Positions 3,040 through 57,452 of a stretch of DNA of 64,000 nt are shown here, in pieces. The notes under the pieces were generated by a model, which saw nothing but the letters and a program-made list of their open reading frames with translations, made no database searches and was not told the DNA's origin. How positions within the stretch are numbered: position 1 is the first letter of the stretch; each line of letters starts with the position of its first letter. The translations under genes were made by a program, and so were the position numbers. This stretch comes from Conger conger (Eukaryota): assembly GCF_963514075.1 (NCBI RefSeq), contig NC_083761.1:49797777-49861776 (forward strand). The letters run 5' to 3'.

Positions 3040-4108
3040 TTCAAAGGTACAATTGGTAAGATTTTTGTGTTAAAAAATTGTTACAAGACCATTGTAAATC
3101 TCTTCATATCATTGAAAAAGGCTCACTGACATGTTGACTCACCCTCTGCCTGTGTTTATAGTCCTTAAATTCGGGTTTCAAAGTGTACATTTGTCGGCCC
3201 GTCAAATGTATCAAAATATTGTCCAGCTGTAAAGCAATTAAAGCTCATTGGTTGAAAAATGGTTCCAACTGCCACAGCCAGTGGCATTGTGGGGGCTGAT
3301 TCTGATTGTTCGTCTCACTGCCTAAATTGCACTCCAGACAAGCAATCACTGAAACTCTGTGTACTATTGCTTATTATCCCAGTGAAGACTACATATCTAG
3401 TTATAAAACAATACCAGTTTGTTATCGGTAGCAACAAGCAAATTAGCTATAGTTAGCTTGAAGAATTTACAAATATCCACTTACGATAAAATATAGGCAA
3501 TATGAACAGTGATTGCACAAGCGTTGTGCTTCAGGTGGATATTTCTACATTCGGGAAGCTAACTAGTAATCGCTCATTTGCTTGTTATAGCGAACTGGTA
3601 TTGTTTTCTAACTAGATAAGCAATAGTATACAGAGTTTCAGTAATCGCTTTTCTGGAGTGCAATTTGGTCAGCTTCACGTTCCTTTTGTCTCTACGTGTT
3701 AAATCATCCGTAAACCTTTATTTCTCTCAAACTGTAAGTTGCAGTTGCATCGTTTGTGGTAGACTATCATATCATATATAGCCAGCTAGTTACCTAGCCA
3801 AATAACTTGCTTGCTCAGAATATAGTTGGTTAGCTAAAGTTAGATAAATAGTGTCACACCAATGTCAAGATCTCATAAAGTCACCTGTTCGGCGAACATT
3901 TTCTTACTAGAGCACTACGAAAAGACGGCAGGCTCTGTTGCGTTTATCACTCTCAGCTTTCCAAAACAGTGCACGAGAACACTGAACTGTATAATAACGC
4001 GTTATATTCATAGACTGTGGGAAGCATAAACAGTGTTGTGGTTTGAGATGTCTGTTGCAATTTCTCTCTTGGCCATTAGGAGTCCAAAATGATCTATTGT
4101 ACCTTTAA
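3040..4108 (+). mobile_element. TIR-MITE family 'X' copy (termini GGTACAAT.../...ATTGTACC), interrupted at about 3295-3945 by a nested foldback element with roughly 140-bp inverted arms (3300-3445 vs 3540-3680)
   Basis: 3055-3295 and 3960-4108 align with the uninterrupted copy at 24640-24965 and with 32150-32600 in reverse orientation. The internal segment carries a long perfect-ish inverted repeat. Confidence 0.55.
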
Positions 4109-8020: not shown

Positions 8021-8464
<444 letters not shown>

Positions 8465-16924: not shown

Positions 16925-17000
16925 CAATATTTAATTGCATTACATTACATTAATGGCATTTGGCAGACACTCTTATCCAGAGCGACGTACAACAAAGTGC
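16925..17000 (-). repeat. SINE family C tail fragment ('cattacattacattaatggcatttggcagacactcttatccagagcgacgtacaacaaagtgcaaagtgc')
   Basis: This is the reverse complement of the tail shared by 24378-24597, 42470-42550 and 57330-57452. Confidence 0.7.
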
Positions 17001-18959
17001 AAAGTGCATACCTATAACCAGGGATAAATGCGTAGAAAGACCCTAGAGGGAAGTACAATTTTGACAGCTACCTGTACAACAAAGATAAGGACCAGTGCCT
17101 ATTTGATCATCAGATTAAAAAAAACAACAACATTTTTTAAAATAGTAATAGCACAACACGCAAATGTATGATTTTCAAATAGTTTCAGAAAAAGATGGTA
17201 TTTCCTTTTAAATTAATTTGTATTTAAATTGTATTTATCATACAGGCTATGACATCAAATTAGTTCATTTGATCATATCAGTGCATTCATTGCTGTAAAC
17301 ATTCAGTTTATTGATCATACAATAAAGTAATCTGAAGAAAAATAAACAAAAATCCTTACGTTCTTATAAAATTGAAGAGACTAACAAATTTAGCATGTTT
17401 TTTCTAAAATCAGTCTGGTTCATCTTCCCTCAAGAAGACTAGGATGACTGTCACAGCCTCCTCCATGCATTAGTACTCCAGAATTGCGGTGACAGAGTCT
17501 CCAGGCTGCATGACAGACTTTTAAGAAGGGTGCATTTTGCTCTAGGTGACAGTATGTCCAGGAGAAGTGAAAAGATATGACATGGGTCACATAGTACAGT
17601 TTAATGAAAGGAAGTTAAAGAAAGGAAGGAAAGGAAACAGCACAGATTCTGCTCAGGATGAAAGATCTGAATGTGAATTGAATTATGGATTAAAAATAAA
17701 GTTAAAGTTGAAATTGATTCCACTGAAGCTAAATTCAACCAGAAAGAAAAAATGGACAAATGTATACTGCCATCTAGTGAACAGAATGCACACTGATAAT
17801 CTGCAACCAATTTCTTTATTGTCGCAGATCAATATTGTTAAACTGGTCTGTTTAAAATAAAATAAAATAAAATATAATGTGTGGCATGAGGTTACTTTTA
17901 GGGATTTCATTACATTATATTAAATTCATTTTGTAAACAACAATATTCCCAGACCAGCAAGTTTGTATGTAACATTACATCACTAAAGCACGAGTGCAAG
18001 TTAACTTCGTACTAACTATGTAGTACAAATTCTGAATGTGCTGCATGTAGACTCAAGGGGCCTGGGCTTGCCATTCTCGGAGAAACTCACAAACTCCAGT
18101 GGTAACTCGAGGTATTGCAGTTTTGTAAGCCTCTGGTGCCAAAAAGCACATTTGCCCATTGAAGTACATTCAAAGCTATACATTTACCCTGGCCAAAATA
18201 TATTACTTTTTTCACACTGAATTAATTAATCTCCAGCAATCAATTTATTTTCTGAGCAATACAGAAGAAGATGTTTCATTTGGTCCGCATGGTTTTACAT
18301 TACACTGCACTCACCTGTTCAATTAAAACAAGACAGTTGGTTGGAAAAAAAATACCAGTGCACAGACCTGCCCTCGAGGACCAAAGTTGTGCATGCTTGG
18401 TATAAATACATAGAGTGTGAGCACCTATTATCGACCAGCTACGCACGATAAACAGAAAAACGCTATTTACAACTATGTATAAAAAAATAGGCAAACTGGT
18501 GTTAACACCCTATACCTAGTTATGTAGAAGAAAATTTCCTTTTTATCTTCTGGAGTTAATTTACTTCTTTACTTCCTTATTTTTTTGTCGGATGCAAAAT
18601 ACATAGGATGTCACCATGCTAGCCCATTAGCCGCTAAGGGGACGTTTATCAACCACCCAGGGGACATGTACCGACCACCAGGTAATTTTTGCTAAAAATA
18701 AAGCCACTCTAAGCTATAAAAGGTGGTTTGCATTCAACTGTATGATATTTTAGCTTGCAAAAAATATGTAAATGATTGCAGTTACTCACCAGTTTATTTT
18801 GTAACATCATCACCTGTACCTTGTGGAAAACACCTGAATCTGATTAGGTACACGTAGGCTGCATTTACAACACCCAGCCCAAAGTTTTTCTCATCTACCT
18901 GCATTATATGGATTGAATAACTAAAAGAAATGGTAAAGGCATTGATCATAATCTTTATA

Positions 18960-34918: not shown

Positions 34919-35196
34919 GAAACGTAAAACATGTCAATGCAACATATTACTCCCAAGTTCCCCAACAATTTATATGGTTGAGTCACAGATGTGCCTCACT
35001 AATTATGATCCATCAGAGAATATGGGACTTACAATTTGATACAATGTGAGGCAATACAACAGTCCTAGCCCCTATGGAATGCTGCAACTTTGGAACTAGA
35101 CATTTGTCTGTTTGTCTTGCATTCAGATTTATTCCTGAGCTAATGACACCCTTAGGTGTATATATACTACTGCTGTTTGTTCTCTCTTTTCATGTC

Positions 35197-35237
35197 TGCC
35201 CTGATGAAGGCCACTATTTGGCCGAAACATGTTGGCA
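35197..35237 (+). ncRNA. Hammerhead-ribozyme core motif in the left PLE terminal repeat: UGCC-CUGAUGA-A-GGCC-acuauuu-GGCC-GAAA-CAUG-UU|GGCA (predicted cleavage after 35233)
   Basis: Seen in the sequence: the conserved cores CUGAUGA and GAAA, a 4-bp stem II (GGCC/GGCC) with a 7-nt loop, the palindromic CAUG where stem III would be, and a 4-nt potential stem I (UGCC/GGCA). This architecture resembles the minimal, dimer-forming hammerheads described for PLEs. Confidence 0.6.
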
Positions 35238-35757
35238 TTTTTTAGTATTCAACTATGAACTAGCCTTTTATAATAAAGCTGTTTTTTACTTCATTGGAAG
35301 AGTGCCTTGGATCCACTTCTTTTGCTCTTTTAACTGGATGGTTTCCCCATGTTTTTGGACCAAAGGGGTTTTGCTTAGGAGGTGCACCACTGCTTTGAGG
35401 TGTTGAGCATCAACCATACAGTAAGTGGCTGTTTTCTACCCACTTTTCTAGTAAAACCATGGAACATAATGGTTTTTCTTATTCTGAAGAAGAAGGAAGA
35501 CAAATTATTACTAGCTCATCACTGCTTGATGACACTCTGTTATGGACACAGATTTGAAAAGCATCTTTGTGGAATTGAAACGTCTTAAGGAGAAAGACAT
35601 CAAACTGGACCTTAATTCTATTACGCTATCAGACTATTGGAGAAAGGGATTTATCCCACGTGGTCTCAGAATTTAAAAGTTCCCAGTCTATGGCTCAAAA
35701 GACAATGATGTTTTTAAAAGTAAATGGGAAGCCATTCTCAACAAGTGTTCATCTGAC

Positions 35758-36249
35758 TTGATTCTTCTACTAATTGAAGAAGCCAAAAAGGATAGGCTAA
35801 TCATCCAAAAAGAGATTGATGAAATGGAAAAGAAGTTGGCGGACTTGTCCAGTGATTCAGAATTTGAGACTAAATTAAAAGACAATCTCAATAAATTCAC
35901 ACAGACACTGAAACAAGAAAAACTTCGTAAATTCCAACGTGATGTTAATGACTACAAAGACAATAAGGTGTATTCTTGGCAGAGATTTACAGCTCCACGT
36001 CACCGGGAACCCCAGCGTAGAGGACCCCGCACTGTGTCGTTCAACTTTACCAGCGAAGAAGAGGATTCTGTTGCACCAGTAGCACACGACCCTACTCTTG
36101 ATTTTTTAGACTACCCACCCCTAACAAGGGGAGACGCGGACAAACGCCCTACTAACAGAGGCCACAGAGGAAGAAGAGGACGAGGAGGGGACGCAAGAAA
36201 TCCACCTCACAAGTACAACATGAGGAGTCACGGTCAACAGAGACTGTAA
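35758..36249 (+). CDS. PLE N-terminal ORF (coiled-coil and basic region, 163 aa)
   Basis: A Lys/Glu-rich heptad-like region (…KKDRLIIQKEIDEMEKKLADLSSDSEFETKLKDNLNKFTQTLKQEKLRKFQRDVNDYKD…) followed by an Arg-rich tail. Located inside the PLE, upstream of the RT. Confidence 0.6.
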   Translation: MILLLIEEAKKDRLIIQKEIDEMEKKLADLSSDSEFETKLKDNLNKFTQTLKQEKLRKFQRDVNDYKDNKVYSWQRFTAPRHREPQRRGPRTVSFNFTSEEEDSVAPVAHDPTLDFLDYPPLTRGDADKRPTNRGHRGRRGRGGDARNPPHKYNMRSHGQQRL

Positions 36250-36356
36250 TCAATTTATCAGGTACACCACTCCAGGACATTCAGACTAAAGTTCTATCTA
36301 TAGGTCTTTCTTTTCCCCCTACTATTTCTTCTAATTTATTTGACATAAAAATCGAT

Positions 36357-38538
36357 TTGTTTCGCTTCTATAGGAATCTACATTTGAAGACATGGTACAA
36401 AGTGAATCCTTCACCTGTGTATACCCCTCAAGAAGGCCGCTCTTCCTCTACCCCTTTTAAATCTAAATCTATTTTTTGTCCTATTGTGCAAAATTCTACC
36501 TTGAACACATTCGAGAAAAAGGTTAACTATGAAGTAGATAATTTGTTGTCTAAAAGCAACAATAAATGTAGGCACAATTTGACTAGGGCTGAACGAGATG
36601 CTCTGAAAGAGCTCTCAGACAATAAGAACATTGTAATTAAAAGGGCAGATAAAGGAGGAGCAGTTGTGGTATGGGGTCTAGAACAGTACACTAATGAGGC
36701 TAATCGCCAGCTACAGGACACTACTTTTTACCTCCCTTAACAAACAACCCCATGGAGTCTTTAACTCAGGAACTCAAGTTGTTACTGTATAAAGCTAAAG
36801 AGGATAATCTTATTTCTGAACCAGAGTTGAAATTCCTTTTGAATTCCAACCCTCGCTTGGCTTCTTTTTATCTTTTACCCAAGGTCCATAAAAACTTGAC
36901 TAATCCACCAGGAAGACCGGTGATCTCGGGGAATGAGTCCCTCACAGAGCCCATTTCTAAATATGTTGACTTCTTTATTAAACCTTTGCTCCCTACTCTC
37001 CCCGCTTACATTCAGGAAACTACTGAGGTTCTTTCTAAAATTAAAGAGAATAGCTTTGTTGGTCCCAATGCTTTATTGGTTACTATGGATGTTGAAGCTT
37101 TATACACTAACATAGAACACGAACAAGGCTTATCTGCACTTAGATACTTTTTAGACAAACGTCCTTACCCACATGACCCCCCCACTGGCTTTCTTGCTGA
37201 CTTGACGTATTTTTGTTTCAGGATAAACTATACAAACAGATGAAGGGATGCACCATGAGGGCATGTTTTAGTCCATCCTATGCGGGTTTGTATATGGGTA
37301 AATGGGAGGAAGATGTAGTGTTTAATGCTAACAATACCTTCTTAGACAAGATCATTTGGTGGGCCCGCTATATAGATGACATTATTCTGTGGTGGAATGG
37401 TACTGAAGAAGAGTTGTTATCTTTCCATGATTTTCTTAATAATGCCAACACCAACGTGAGGCTCTCGTTGGAATATCATAAAGATAAGATTAATTTTCTA
37501 GATATTGAAATCAGTAAAGATGACAATGGTTACCTCCATACTTCTATATTTAGAAAGAATATACATAAGAATACTATACTCCATGCTAACAGTTTTCATT
37601 CCACTACTTTGATTAATAATATTCCCTTCGGTCAATTTCAAAGGCTACGCAGGATTTGTGATGATGACAACGATTTCAAATTGAAGGGAAGAGAGATGTA
37701 CAGCCGGTTTAGGGAACGTGGTTATTCTCCCAAGGTATTAGACACAGCTCTTTCCAAGGCTAACTCCCTTGAACGACACACACTTTTAACTAGGAAGCCT
37801 CTGTTGACTACCAAGAAAGATCGGATTTATTTCTCTACCCGTTTTAGCACTGAGGCTTTTGGTATACGTAACATCATCAGAAAGAATTGGGGATTAATCC
37901 AGTGTGATGACACATTACGGGAGGTCTTCCCGGACCCCCCAATTTTTACATTCAAGAGAGCACCTACCTTGGGAGACAAACTAGTTCATAGCCACTTACC
38001 TGCCAAAGAACGTGACACATGGTTGCCTAGAGTACCTAACGGCACTTTTAAATGTGGCCATTGCAATCAGTGTGACACCGTAATAAAATCTAAAGGTTTC
38101 ACCCATCCTATAACACAAATGTTTTATTCTACGAATCAGTTTATCAACTGTAAGACCACACATGTAATTTACATTTTGTTATGTTCGCTATGTAATGCTT
38201 TTTATGTGGGGCGTACTAAGCGACGATTACAGGATCGGTTAGCAGAGCATAAATATGCTGTTAAAATTAACAACTTTGATTATGCTATTGTGAAACATTT
38301 CAATGACGCTCATAAATGCAGATCTGTCTCTTTTTCAGCTTTTGGTATTGAACATGTCCCTTTGAACATTAGAAGAGGTGATAGAGAGAAAATACTAAAT
38401 CAGAAAGAAAGCCGTTGGATTTATAAACTCAAAGCTATGGAGTTCCCGGGCCTAAATGATTCTATAGATATGGTATCTTTTTTTATAAACCCCTTAGATA
38501 TGGGCCCTTTTTTAGTGTATTCTTTGTCTTCTTACTGA
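36357..38538 (+). pseudogene. PLE reverse transcriptase plus GIY-YIG endonuclease ORF, split across three frames (36357-36740, 36752-37243, 37213-38538); frameshifted, probably recently inactivated
   Basis: RT motifs and the GIY-YIG motif as above. Three overlapping or adjacent ORFs sit in frames 0, 2 and 1. Confidence 0.8.
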
Positions 38539-38832
38539 CTGTATTTCTCCTCTTACTATATGTTAATACTGTTACATGGCATAACGAGCAGGATAGTATT
38601 TGAATTTATATAGTGATTACTAGTTGCTCTCTATTTTTACTATCCTTTATAGCAGTTCTATGTATTGTACAGCAGTTCTATATATTGTTTGTTTACTGAC
38701 CTCTAGTGTTTTCTGCTTGTCTTGCATTCAGATTTATTCCTGAGCCCTCCCACTTTGCACAGCTGTGGTCAATCACCTTAATGACACCCTTAGGTGTATA
38801 TATACTACTGCTGTTTGTTCTCTTTTCAGGTC

Positions 38833-38873
38833 TGCCCTGATGAAGGCCACTACTTGGCCGAAACATGTTGGAA
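38833..38873 (+). ncRNA. Second hammerhead core motif in the right PLE terminal repeat (CUGAUGA…GGCC/GGCC…GAAACAUGUU). The stem I complementarity is lost (GGAA instead of GGCA).
   Basis: Same motif as 35197-35237 with 2 substitutions. Confidence 0.5.
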
Positions 38874-40171
38874 TTTTTTAGTGTTCAACTATGAACTAGC
38901 CTTTTATAATAAAGCTGTTTTTTACTTCATTGGAAGAGTGCCTTGGATCCACTTCTTTTGCTCTTCATATAAAAATCAGTGTTTTATACTAATTTACTTC
39001 ATTCCGATAAATAACTGTTTTTGCAATATGCCCACTCACAATAACAACACAATGAATGCATATCATTTATAATTTTATTATACATGTAACAGAAGCGGGA
39101 TGAAATATTGGGACTAGTGAGATGAATACAAATTAATCTTTTGAATGAACATTTTTTATATAAAATACACTTACTGTCTTAATTTACTCTTGTTAAGCAA
39201 GCTACCTTGAGTGTGACATCCCTTTTTTTTTTTTTTTTTTTTCAAATTAATAACTTTCACTTTTAATCTTGCTATGCTACCAATGGTGATATTTATGGAA
39301 TGCAGTGTCTTTTTCCCTGCCTTTTTCTCTATGTAAAAAAATATATATATATGAAAAGAATATGATAAATATGATGCTTAGTTTGGTGTACCACTGATAG
39401 TAAACAGAGAAAAAAAACAGACCATGTTAGCCAGTTGATTAGGAATGTATGCTTTTAAAGGTTCAGCAGGGTTAAATGAAATAGAGTGCTCCATAATGCA
39501 CTTTTTTTTTTCTTGATTTGGCGCTGTACACAATTTTAGATTCGTAACCAAACAAATCACATGTGGCTAAAGTGCAGATTTTTTGCTTTTATTAAAGTTA
39601 ATTTTTCACCGTGTAGAAGTGACAGCACTTGTCCAAACTGTAAAACTCCCACCACGTGACACAAATGAGGCTCTTGCTTTGCTATGTGGCCAATAACAGG
39701 CTAAAAAGGTAATCATAAGCCTAGAATCAAGAATACACACTAAAAGCTCTCTTGTATCTCTCGTAAAGAAATTGAATATACCCCATTAATCAGAAACACC
39801 AGCAGAGCAATTTGTCCCAAACATTATGGTCCCCTGAAATAAGGGGGACTTATATATAAAAAATGCTGTCATTTATACATGGTGAAACCAAAATGTATTA
39901 CAAAAATTAATAAACTCTGCACTTCAAGCACATTATGCACCATTTGATTGCAAATGGAAAACTCTGGAGAGCCAAATCAAGAAAAAAAAAAAAAAATGTA
40001 CTAAACATTATGGAGTACACACAAATAAAACGAATTAATAGAACTACAAGTAAACATTTAGCATACAACAGCTCCTAAAAAATGTGAGAAAGACATTAGT
40101 TTCATTAAACATATTTGGGGATCTGTGTTTCTTTAATGAGGAAAAAAAAACATCCCAAACATGACAATCCA

Positions 40172-57329: not shown

Positions 57330-57452
57330 ACTATACTGTCCTCTCAGGTCCTCTTTGCACTTGTTCTTGTGTTTAATTTGCACTTTGTTGTACGTCGCTC
57401 TGGATAAGAGCGTCTGTTAAATGCCATGTAATGTAATGTAATGTAATGAAAT
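57330..57452 (+). repeat. SINE family C tail fragment ending in (taatg)n-like 'atgtaatgtaatgtaatgtaatg'
   Basis: '...gcactttgttgtacgtcgctctggataagagcgtctgttaaatgccatgtaatgtaatg...'. Confidence 0.7.

Follow-up and report, generated by a model that had tools for sequence, protein, structure and literature searches.

The element and its motif

The window analyzed here, meaning the whole 64,000-nucleotide (64-kb) stretch of DNA, contains a degenerate Penelope-like retrotransposon (Penelope-like element, PLE), a decayed relic whose two pseudo-LTRs (pLTRs) each carry one copy of a small hammerhead motif. The features of the element are as follows, with coordinates counted from the first nucleotide of the window.

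35104-38965, + strand: Penelope-like element, 3.9 kb, recognized from its direct repeats and its RT/GIY-YIG coding region
35104-35329, + strand: 5′ pLTR, a direct repeat with 38709-38965
35197-35237, + strand: minimal type I hammerhead motif, 5′ copy (sequence, descriptor match, covariance model R1)
between 35233 and 35234, + strand: predicted cleavage site, 5′ copy
35272-35277 (also 38908-38913), + strand: AATAAA hexamer, a candidate polyadenylation signal of presumed function
35300-35310 (also 38936-38946), + strand: conserved GAGTGCCTTGG block, recognized from conservation in fish and frog pLTRs
35758-36249, + strand: ORF1-like upstream ORF, 163 aa, charged and coiled-coil-like
36246-38538, + strand: ORF for reverse transcriptase (RT) with a C-terminal GIY-YIG endonuclease (EN), pseudogenized (tblastn, Pfam in homologues, motifs)
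38709-38965, + strand: 3′ pLTR, a direct repeat with the 5′ copy
38833-38873, + strand: minimal hammerhead motif, 3′ copy (sequence, pLTR alignment, model R1)
between 38869 and 38870, + strand: predicted cleavage site, 3′ copy

The pLTRs are approximately 97% identical (95–98% across three blocks, with two indels of 33 nt and 2 nt). The 5′ pLTR is most likely the 3′ end of a 5′-truncated upstream tandem copy, and the insertion is considered to end, on its 3′ side, at position 38965, where homology to the 5′ pLTR stops. When the intact homologues P0001 (93% identity) and P0003 (70%) are aligned to the window by tblastn, the RT-EN ORF is found to be split over three frames (36246-36752, 36725-37228 and 37204-38484, with the stop codon at 38538), and the element is therefore a dead copy with two frameshifts. 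The RT motifs MDVEALYTNI and YIDD and the endonuclease motif YVGRT...R..EH can still be read in this ORF, whose match to the GIY-YIG family of Pfam lies below threshold. Among eight intact homologues (630–760 aa), RVT_1 scores above the Pfam cut-off in three and below it in the other five, while GIY-YIG is matched in six, at the same C-terminal site and always at sub-threshold scores (17–21 bits versus a cut-off of 22.6). The GIY-YIG assignment thus rests on consistent weak matches and on the motif, which point to this family, and not on a curated threshold. A database search yielded 70 homologues, and those with a named source all come from fish or frog genomes. No Pfam match was obtained for the ORF1-like ORF at 35758-36249; a separate upstream ORF, 266–327 aa long, occupies the same position in intact relatives (called genes in loci L005, L009 and L011).

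Canonical EN+ PLEs are defined by an RT with a C-terminal GIY-YIG endonuclease located between pseudo-LTRs (PMC4209133; PMC8557442). The same organization is found here, with an RT ORF, a C-terminal GIY-YIG endonuclease, direct pLTRs and a ribozyme motif on the sense strand. The endonuclease linker contains a CxxCxxC motif (FKCGHCNQC), a trait of Neptune and Nematis elements (Craig et al., PMC8557442), and we infer from this linker alone that the element may be Neptune-like. Both motif copies lie on the coding strand of the RT plus GIY-YIG ORF and are 3636 nt apart, one preceding the first ORF by about 520 nt and the other following the RT-EN stop codon at a distance of about 295 nt. An earlier reading of the DNA, made from the sequence alone, had placed the motif in the terminal repeat of a PLE, and the direct repeats that flank the coding region bear this out.

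The 5′ copy consists of the following parts.

35197-35200, + strand: 5′ strand of helix I, positions 2.4-2.1, UGCC
35201-35207, + strand: core positions C3-A9, CUGAUGA
35208, + strand: extra unpaired A between A9 and G10.1
35209-35213 with 35219-35223, + strand: helix II, GGCCA/UGGCC, 5 bp
35214-35218, + strand: loop 2, 5 nt, CUAUU
35224-35226, + strand: G12-A14, GAA
35227-35232, + strand: palindrome from A15.1 to U16.1, ACAUGU
35233, + strand: U17, the base at the cleavage site
35234-35237, + strand: 3′ strand of helix I, positions 1.1-1.4, GGCA

All nucleotides of the invariant hammerhead core are present and in the correct order (C3, U4, G5, A6, N7, G8 and A9, then G12, A13 and A14, the A15.1-U16.1 pair, and H17, which is U). 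The boxes CUGAUGA (35201-35207), GAAA (35224-35227) and U16.1-U17 (35232-35233) follow the type I order. The sequence-only reading had recognized both core boxes in this order, a four-nucleotide complementarity for stem I, and a self-complementary segment in place of stem III; the first is upheld by our own reading of the sequence and by a descriptor match, the second corresponds to the 4 bp of UGCC/GGCA, and the third to the palindrome ACAUGU. Its proposed cleavage after 35233 also coincides with the scissile bond that we predict. Two details are to be revised. Stem II had been given 4 bp, whereas helix II can form 5 bp that close a 5-nt loop, and the A that follows CUGAUGA, written there together with the stem, is an unpaired extra base outside of it; the G10.1-C11.1 pair is formed by G35209 and C35223, and A35208 is unpaired. 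The self-reverse-complementary segment at 35227-35232 occupies the place of helix III. Because it could close only a 2-nt loop, no helix III hairpin forms in a single molecule, and the palindrome can pair only between two copies.

The 3′ copy differs from the 5′ copy by two bases, a U to C change in loop 2 (38856) and a C to A change at position 1.3 of helix I (38872). The latter converts GGCA to GGAA, such that helix I retains two C-G pairs, followed by a G·A mismatch and a U-A pair. An earlier statement that the second copy has lost its stem I pairing is therefore correct insofar as the helix is weakened by the mismatch, but three pairs are kept and the loss is not complete. Judging from the related loci L001, L002 and L004, the ancestral base at position 1.3 is C. 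The pLTR copies have diverged to the same degree inside the motif, at 2 of its 41 bases, and in the rest of the repeat, and there is thus no sign of selection since insertion.

Occurrence and covariation in related elements

To search for minimal hammerhead ribozymes (min-HHRs), we used a descriptor that specifies the two core boxes, a palindromic helix III (an even-length segment running from A15.1 to U16.1) and a U-H cleavage dinucleotide, and that requires 3 bp or more in both helix I and helix II, the latter with a bulge allowed. In the 64-kb window this descriptor finds the 5′ copy (helix I of 4 bp, helix II of 5 bp). Lowering the requirement for helix I to 2 bp adds the 3′ copy, and even then no other CTGANGA site is matched, although the window has 51 of them. 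In 200 random sequences generated with the dinucleotide transition frequencies of the window, 0.01 sites are expected per 64 kb when both helices have a minimum of 3 bp, and no site occurred in any of these 64-kb sequences when at least 4 bp were demanded of both. A simpler pattern, CTGATGA-N(8-36)-GAAACATGT, occurs twice in the window and never in 100 shuffles, where the two occurrences are duplicates of a single repeat and count as only one independent observation.

A search with the hammerhead covariance models of Rfam 15 had been suggested, with a lack of significant matches to be read as refutation. At gathering score over the whole window, and at E values up to 10 on 35100-35340, no hammerhead family (Hammerhead_1, Hammerhead_3, Hammerhead_II, HH9 or HH10) matches. 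Such a lack of matches was thus found, but it is not valid as a refutation, because the same models also miss all 16 of 16 loci that carry clear min-HHR relatives, which makes the negative result uninformative. Rfam hammerhead families are built from hammerheads that have a real helix III and loop-loop contacts. A relaxed RNAmotif descriptor was likewise needed to find the min-HHR class in the first place (Cervera & de la Peña 2014, PMC4209133). For genome scans, this means that a negative Rfam result is no argument against a PLE hammerhead, and that a dedicated descriptor or model is needed.

For an independent comparison, loci were fetched around homologues that had been selected solely by protein similarity, with the RNA motif playing no part in the choice. 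The whole motif was found in eight of these protein-anchored loci, located 300–750 nt past the stop codon and ranging from fish to Xenopus (33–93% protein identity).

L001: 93% protein identity, whole motif
L002: 70% protein identity, whole motif
L004: 66% protein identity, whole motif
L024, Salvelinus: 54% protein identity, whole motif
L003, Carassius: 52% protein identity, whole motif
L022, Boleophthalmus: 48% protein identity, whole motif
L021, Amphiprion: 46% protein identity, whole motif
L023, Xenopus laevis: 33% protein identity, whole motif

The motif is also present in a family represented by L005, L007 and L008 (56% identity), whose contigs end inside of it. No motif was seen in L009 to L020, where the contigs stop 200–360 nt after the stop codon and thus short of the expected position, or within 5 kb in L025 from Lithobates (32% identity), which may have a divergent core or be a decayed copy.

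In an alignment of ten protein-anchored sequences, the core and cleavage site vary at N7 (U or C) and at H17 (U, and C once), and the sole other core change is seen in one goldfish copy, which has GAUA in place of GAAA. N7 and H17 are the two positions at which hammerheads tolerate variation. The extra A between A9 and G10.1 is found in all ten sequences, and the G10.1-C11.1 pair in nine, with G-U in Xenopus. Besides the anatomy and location of the motif and the conservation of its core, compensatory change is observed in all three helices among these related elements. Helix I occurs as UGCC/GGCA, UGCC/GGCG, CACC/GGUG or GCCC/GGGC, helix II changes from G-C to A-U at 10.2/11.2, and six sequences have AU at the center of the palindrome (ACAUGU) where the other four have GC (ACGCGU), with self-complementarity kept throughout. 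Because the palindrome center covaries, the protein-anchored set provides independent comparative support for a dimer-type helix III. Of the alignment cells, 89% are paired, compared to 19–42% when the partners are slid. Changes on both sides of a pair are seen in 15 cells versus 6.8 in shuffles (none of 500 shuffles reaches 15), and the covariation score is 0.315 versus 0.05–0.08 with slid partners. Six of the 13 pairs show such two-sided changes here, and eight of the 13 do so in a larger set of 46 sequences.

When pLTRs are aligned from fish to frog, only three blocks are conserved, namely the hammerhead, an A[AT]TAAA hexamer and GAGTGCCTTGG, and the hammerhead is the best-conserved block of pLTRs that are otherwise unalignable.

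The larger set was obtained from a scan of metagenomes with the pattern CTGAYGAAG-N(7-20)-GAAACNNGTTGG. Of 121 matches, 43 have both stems, where fewer than one would be expected by chance; about two thirds of the 121 are stem-less chance matches, mostly in bacterial-looking contigs. The structured matches recur in runs of contigs with a common name prefix, and these contigs may be animal host DNA in gut metagenomes. Structured matches were combined with seven protein-anchored relatives, and with no sequence from the window, to give an alignment of 46 sequences. Its covariation score is 0.489 versus 0.184 after shuffling, and 92.9% of its cells are paired, a percentage that is inflated because the matches were selected for at least 3 bp per stem and for the core pattern, such that the protein-anchored set is the unbiased test of pairing. 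The covariance model built from this alignment (R1) scores the 5′ copy at 52.0 bits (E about 8 × 10^-14) and the 3′ copy at 44.6 bits (E about 2 × 10^-11), scores in which the independent information lies in the stems and spacing, the core pattern of the training set having been copied from the window. The next best score in the 64 kb is 12 bits, and with R1 there is no third copy in the window.

A dimeric model and known hammerheads

Min-HHRs are known from metazoan PLEs, including Xena, Poseidon and Neptune elements of fish, and are distinguished by an extra nucleotide that separates A9 from the G10.1-C11.1 pair, by palindromic sequences at 15.2-16.2 and in loop 3, and by a helix I that has 4–5 bp and no defined loop 1, with covariation within families (Cervera & de la Peña 2014, PMC4209133). 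All of the diagnostic traits listed in that study for the metazoan PLE class are present at the locus, where likeness to the fish examples was judged on the described traits. Like the published class, the motif lies on the sense strand of both pLTRs in type I topology, with an unpaired base between A9 and G10.1, the G10.1-C11.1 pair and a helix I within the 4–5 bp range that has no loop 1. It also lacks a stable helix III, has a palindrome around 15.2-16.2 that implies a dimer, and covaries family-wide. There is no substantial difference; helix II is 5 bp long here versus 7–8 bp in Schistosoma families (PMC4209133). The expectation that PLEs carry terminal-repeat hammerheads, some of them minimal variants that act as dimers through a palindromic stem III, thus agrees with this published work.

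We therefore regard the motif as a genuine copy of the known PLE min-HHR, which confirms the observation made in the sequence-only reading and supports its interpretation. Taking the evidence jointly, it is highly probable that the element has a sense-strand min-HHR in each pLTR that belongs to a class working most likely as a dimer, and that the copy examined here has decayed. The assignment to this fold and family is well supported. Cleavage is plausible, and is probably protein-assisted. This kind of element is already known, and the result is a correct but ordinary annotation of a decayed fish copy: 35104-38965 can be annotated as a PLE with the minimal hammerhead of its family in the pseudo-LTRs, and no new kind of element is involved.

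A dimer could arise within a single read-through or tandem transcript, from its 5′ and 3′ pLTR copies, or else between copies on separate transcripts. Both palindromes would join in one shared helix III of 6 bp. Since pairing of A15.1 from copy A with U16.1 from copy B puts U17 and the 1.x strand of B opposite the 2.x strand of A, the strands of helix I would be swapped, with UGCC of copy A pairing to GGCA of copy B, giving two intermolecular helices I, while each helix II would stay an intramolecular hairpin. The expected outcome is a pair of three-way junctions in which the CUGAUGA/GAA core is complete, and each core would cut the strand of the other copy after U17 to leave a 2′,3′-cyclic phosphate and a 5′ hydroxyl group. 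Cuts at both sites would release a unit-length element RNA of 3636 nt. The C to A change of the 3′ copy would lie in the substrate strand that pairs with the core of the 5′ copy, such that the 3′ site would be the impaired one. The site after 35233, which would be cut by the core of the 3′ copy, would retain all of its pairs.

Because nearest-neighbor energies do not model hammerhead cores, we used them solely to assess the feasibility of the double-hammerhead pairing. This pairing is nested and has a calculated energy of −27.0 kcal/mol for two 5′ copies and −20.3 kcal/mol for a 5′ and a 3′ copy. The minimum free energy dimer has −31.4 kcal/mol versus the −27.0 kcal/mol of the double hammerhead, and nearest-neighbor folding thus favors other pairings. 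In the minimum free energy folds of monomer and dimers the core is partly paired (AUG with CAU) or the helix II strands are swapped, and the active fold is not reproduced.

Published work on the class suggests that the motif would cleave and that it would require a dimer to do so. Dimeric min-HHR constructs cleave and single motifs do not; one from Schistosoma is inactive as a single motif and weakly active as a dimer or trimer, and cleavage of min-HHRs in vitro is poor and mostly seen at non-physiological Mg2+ (PMC4209133). With a 4-bp helix I and no contact between loops 1 and 2, the window motif is likewise predicted to have low intrinsic activity.

It is probable that the protein of the element itself provides help. 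The hammerhead of a Poseidon element from Anolis carolinensis (PAc) cleaves only with the protein of its element, and its C3 and G8 mutants behave as expected of a hammerhead (Frangieh et al. 2024, PMC11167929). PAc resembles the window motif in being a PLE pLTR hammerhead without a proper helix III. It is inactive alone and cleaves with protein, and is the best experimental guide to how the window motif may work. There are also differences. The PAc motif overlaps the start codon and its cut site is 26 bp into the ORF, whereas the window motif stands well ahead of the first ORF and, in its 3′ copy, beyond the RT-EN stop codon, and is followed by the conserved A[AT]TAAA. To judge from the CxxCxxC linker, the PLE clade is probably also different from that of PAc.

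The same core and the same topology are shared with canonical type I hammerheads (newt satellite 2, Schistosoma Sm-alpha and axolotl retrozymes; Rfam Hammerhead_1). A further likeness is the weak helix III with a palindromic loop, and double-hammerhead dimers of the canonical ribozymes cleave efficiently. However, the window motif is not itself a canonical type I hammerhead: canonical examples have a 6-bp helix I, a loop 1 that touches loop 2 and a helix III hairpin of 1–2 bp, all of which the window motif lacks, and they sit in tandem repeats of 150–450 bp, which the window motif does not.

Alternative readings and the end of the pLTR

A reading without catalysis is that the motif is a conserved structured RNA of PLEs, with the fold of a hammerhead and no cleavage role in the life cycle; it might serve to bind or position the RT-EN protein, or ride along with the pLTR as a selfish passenger. 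Several reports are consistent with this. Hammerhead mutations in PAc had no effect on insertion by target-primed reverse transcription in vitro, and RNA-seq gave no read with an end at the cut site (PMC11167929), in addition to which the activity of min-HHRs in vitro is low (PMC4209133). Naiad and Chlamys PLEs manage without the motif, and it has been suggested that hammerheads may simply parasitize PLEs (Craig et al., PMC8557442). Such whole clades thrive without a hammerhead, whose role in transposition is a putative one. Moreover, the fixed arrangement with the A[AT]TAAA hexamer and the GAGTGCCTTGG block suggests a composite 3′-end module. Nevertheless, in nine of the ten independent relatives the variation of core and cleavage site is confined to N7 and H17 while the stems covary, a pattern in keeping with selection for catalysis more than for a simple hairpin, and the Anolis hammerhead does cleave with protein and shows the expected C3 and G8 genetics (PMC11167929). 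We therefore consider it improbable that the motif has no cleavage role.

Alternatively, the motif could belong to a non-autonomous, non-LTR retrozyme, that is, one of the short tandem repeats that contain a type I hammerhead and give rise to small circular RNAs. Vertebrate retrozymes do contain type I hammerheads whose helix III is weak and which function as dimers, and a 2026 preprint derives retrozymes from the pLTRs of PLEs. However, retrozyme monomers are non-coding and have 150–450 bp, whereas the two copies here are 3636 nt apart and enclose the ORF1-like and RT-EN ORFs, and there are no further copies in the 64-kb window. The anatomy, a 3.6-kb coding unit with two copies only, thus excludes a retrozyme, and we give this origin very little probability.

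Least probable of all, to the point of being negligible, is the reading that CUGAUGA and GAAA came together by chance in a repeat and mean nothing at the RNA level: the core boxes are short, CTGANGA occurs 51 times in the window, many of the metagenome pattern matches are plainly stem-less and Rfam gives no match, but the full descriptor is expected only 0.01 times per 64 kb, and conservation at the same place in PLEs of 33–70% protein identity, as the best-conserved block of the pLTR, together with compensatory changes and the R1 scores, refutes this reading.

Returning to the interpretation as a PLE min-HHR, the sequence that follows the motif raises one further possibility. The AATAAA at 35272-35277 lies 39 nt 3′ of the predicted cleavage site, and A[AT]TAAA is found 19–41 nt downstream of this site in all ten protein-anchored vertebrate copies. 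It is conceivable, if rather unlikely, that in this lineage of fish and amphibian PLEs the hammerhead, A[AT]TAAA and GAGTGCC(T)TGG form a fixed 3′-end module in which a cut at U17 competes with or replaces polyadenylation. If so, the cut would take away the poly(A) tail together with roughly the last 60 nucleotides, and would leave a defined 3′ end with a 2′,3′-cyclic phosphate for use by the RT or for ligation into a circle. A proposal that min-HHR ends could be ligated into a circle has been made previously (Cervera & de la Peña 2014, PMC4209133), and for animal retrozymes an RtcB-type ligase circularizes efficiently in vitro. In one related family, assembled contigs from three samples end inside the hammerhead, and in two families contigs begin at a GAGTGCC-like block. 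Both observations may be assembly artefacts; they are compatible with such a module and prove nothing.

A TATA-like box at 35159-35166, about 35 nt upstream of the motif, was considered as a conserved promoter and rejected, as it is present only in the window, L001 and L002. UnaL2 LINE tails, identified with Rfam and in keeping with a fish genome, are also present in the window.

A candidate polyadenylation signal 3′ of the hammerhead

In every one of the 10 protein-anchored vertebrate copies, that is, those chosen by protein homology alone and without regard to RNA motif, AATAAA or ATTAAA lies 19-41 nt 3′ of the predicted hammerhead cleavage site, and a T-rich run comes after it.

35272-35277 and 38908-38913: A[AT]TAAA hexamer downstream of the hammerhead in each pLTR of the window; also found in L001-L004 and L021-L024

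This hexamer resembles a polyadenylation signal and is a candidate for that of the PLE. If it does serve as one, then hammerhead cleavage would deprive the transcript of its poly(A) tail together with its last ~60 nt.

pLTR blocks and contig boundaries

Two further elements flank the ribozyme within the pLTRs.

35159-35166 (and 38797-38804): TATATATA box, ~35 nt upstream of the hammerhead 5′ end
35300-35310 and 38936-38946: GAGTGCCTTGG, the third block of the pLTR conserved from fish to frog

The TATATATA box is common to the window and its closest relatives (L001 and L002) and is absent from more distant ones. If it functions in a promoter, the transcript would have the ribozyme at its very start. 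The two pLTRs also differ by a 33-nt stretch, CCTCCCACTTTGCACAGCTGTGGTCAATCACCT (38746-38778), which is present in the 3′ copy and in L001 but missing in the 5′ copy, indicating a deletion in the latter after insertion.

Contigs from more than 10 samples, representing two related families (L005, L006 and L011-L020), start within a few bases of the block equivalent to GAGTGCCTTGG, in versions such as GGAAGCACTCCAACTGGA and CTGAGCACTTCGGAT. These starts could mark the 5′ end of a transcript or of the element, could reflect reverse transcriptase initiation or a "tail" region, or could be mere assembly breaks. At the hammerhead itself, three contigs, each from a different sequencing run and all belonging to a single related PLE family, terminate inside the motif (L005, 3473-3495; L008, 2976-2998; L007, at its end), with final sequences of ...GCCGAAA or ...GCCGA, 7-9 nt ahead of the predicted cleavage site. 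Either cleavage in vivo or a break in the assembly graph could be the cause.

Hammerheads in other loci

The Amphiprion locus (L021) carries two hammerheads of equal score, at 8117-8157 (plus strand) and, inverted and 4.3 kb upstream, at 3745-3785 (minus strand); the inverted example agrees with the inverted, 5′-truncated partner copies described for PLE insertions. Only one protein-anchored locus with sufficient flank is without a hammerhead: in Lithobates pipiens (L025), none of the min-HHR type was found within 5 kb on either side of the RT-EN ORF, which is apparently intact (717 aa; RT-EN 32% identical).

The same min-HHR architecture, with the extra A and the ACAUGU palindrome, recurs in dozens of metagenome contigs (L030-L145), presumably animal host DNA, and among these examples stems I and II vary with compensation. 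Many of the contig names have a common prefix.

Other features of the window

16950-17003 (minus strand) and 57377-57430 (plus strand): UnaL2 LINE 3′ elements, reaching the Rfam gathering score with 59.2 and 58.3 bits
40172-41176 (minus strand): 334-aa ORF encoding a run of C2H2 zinc fingers with HTGEKPY linkers

The two UnaL2 elements are consistent with a fish genome in which LINE/SINE tails are abundant. The PLE ends ~1.2 kb before the zinc-finger ORF, which is encoded on the other strand.
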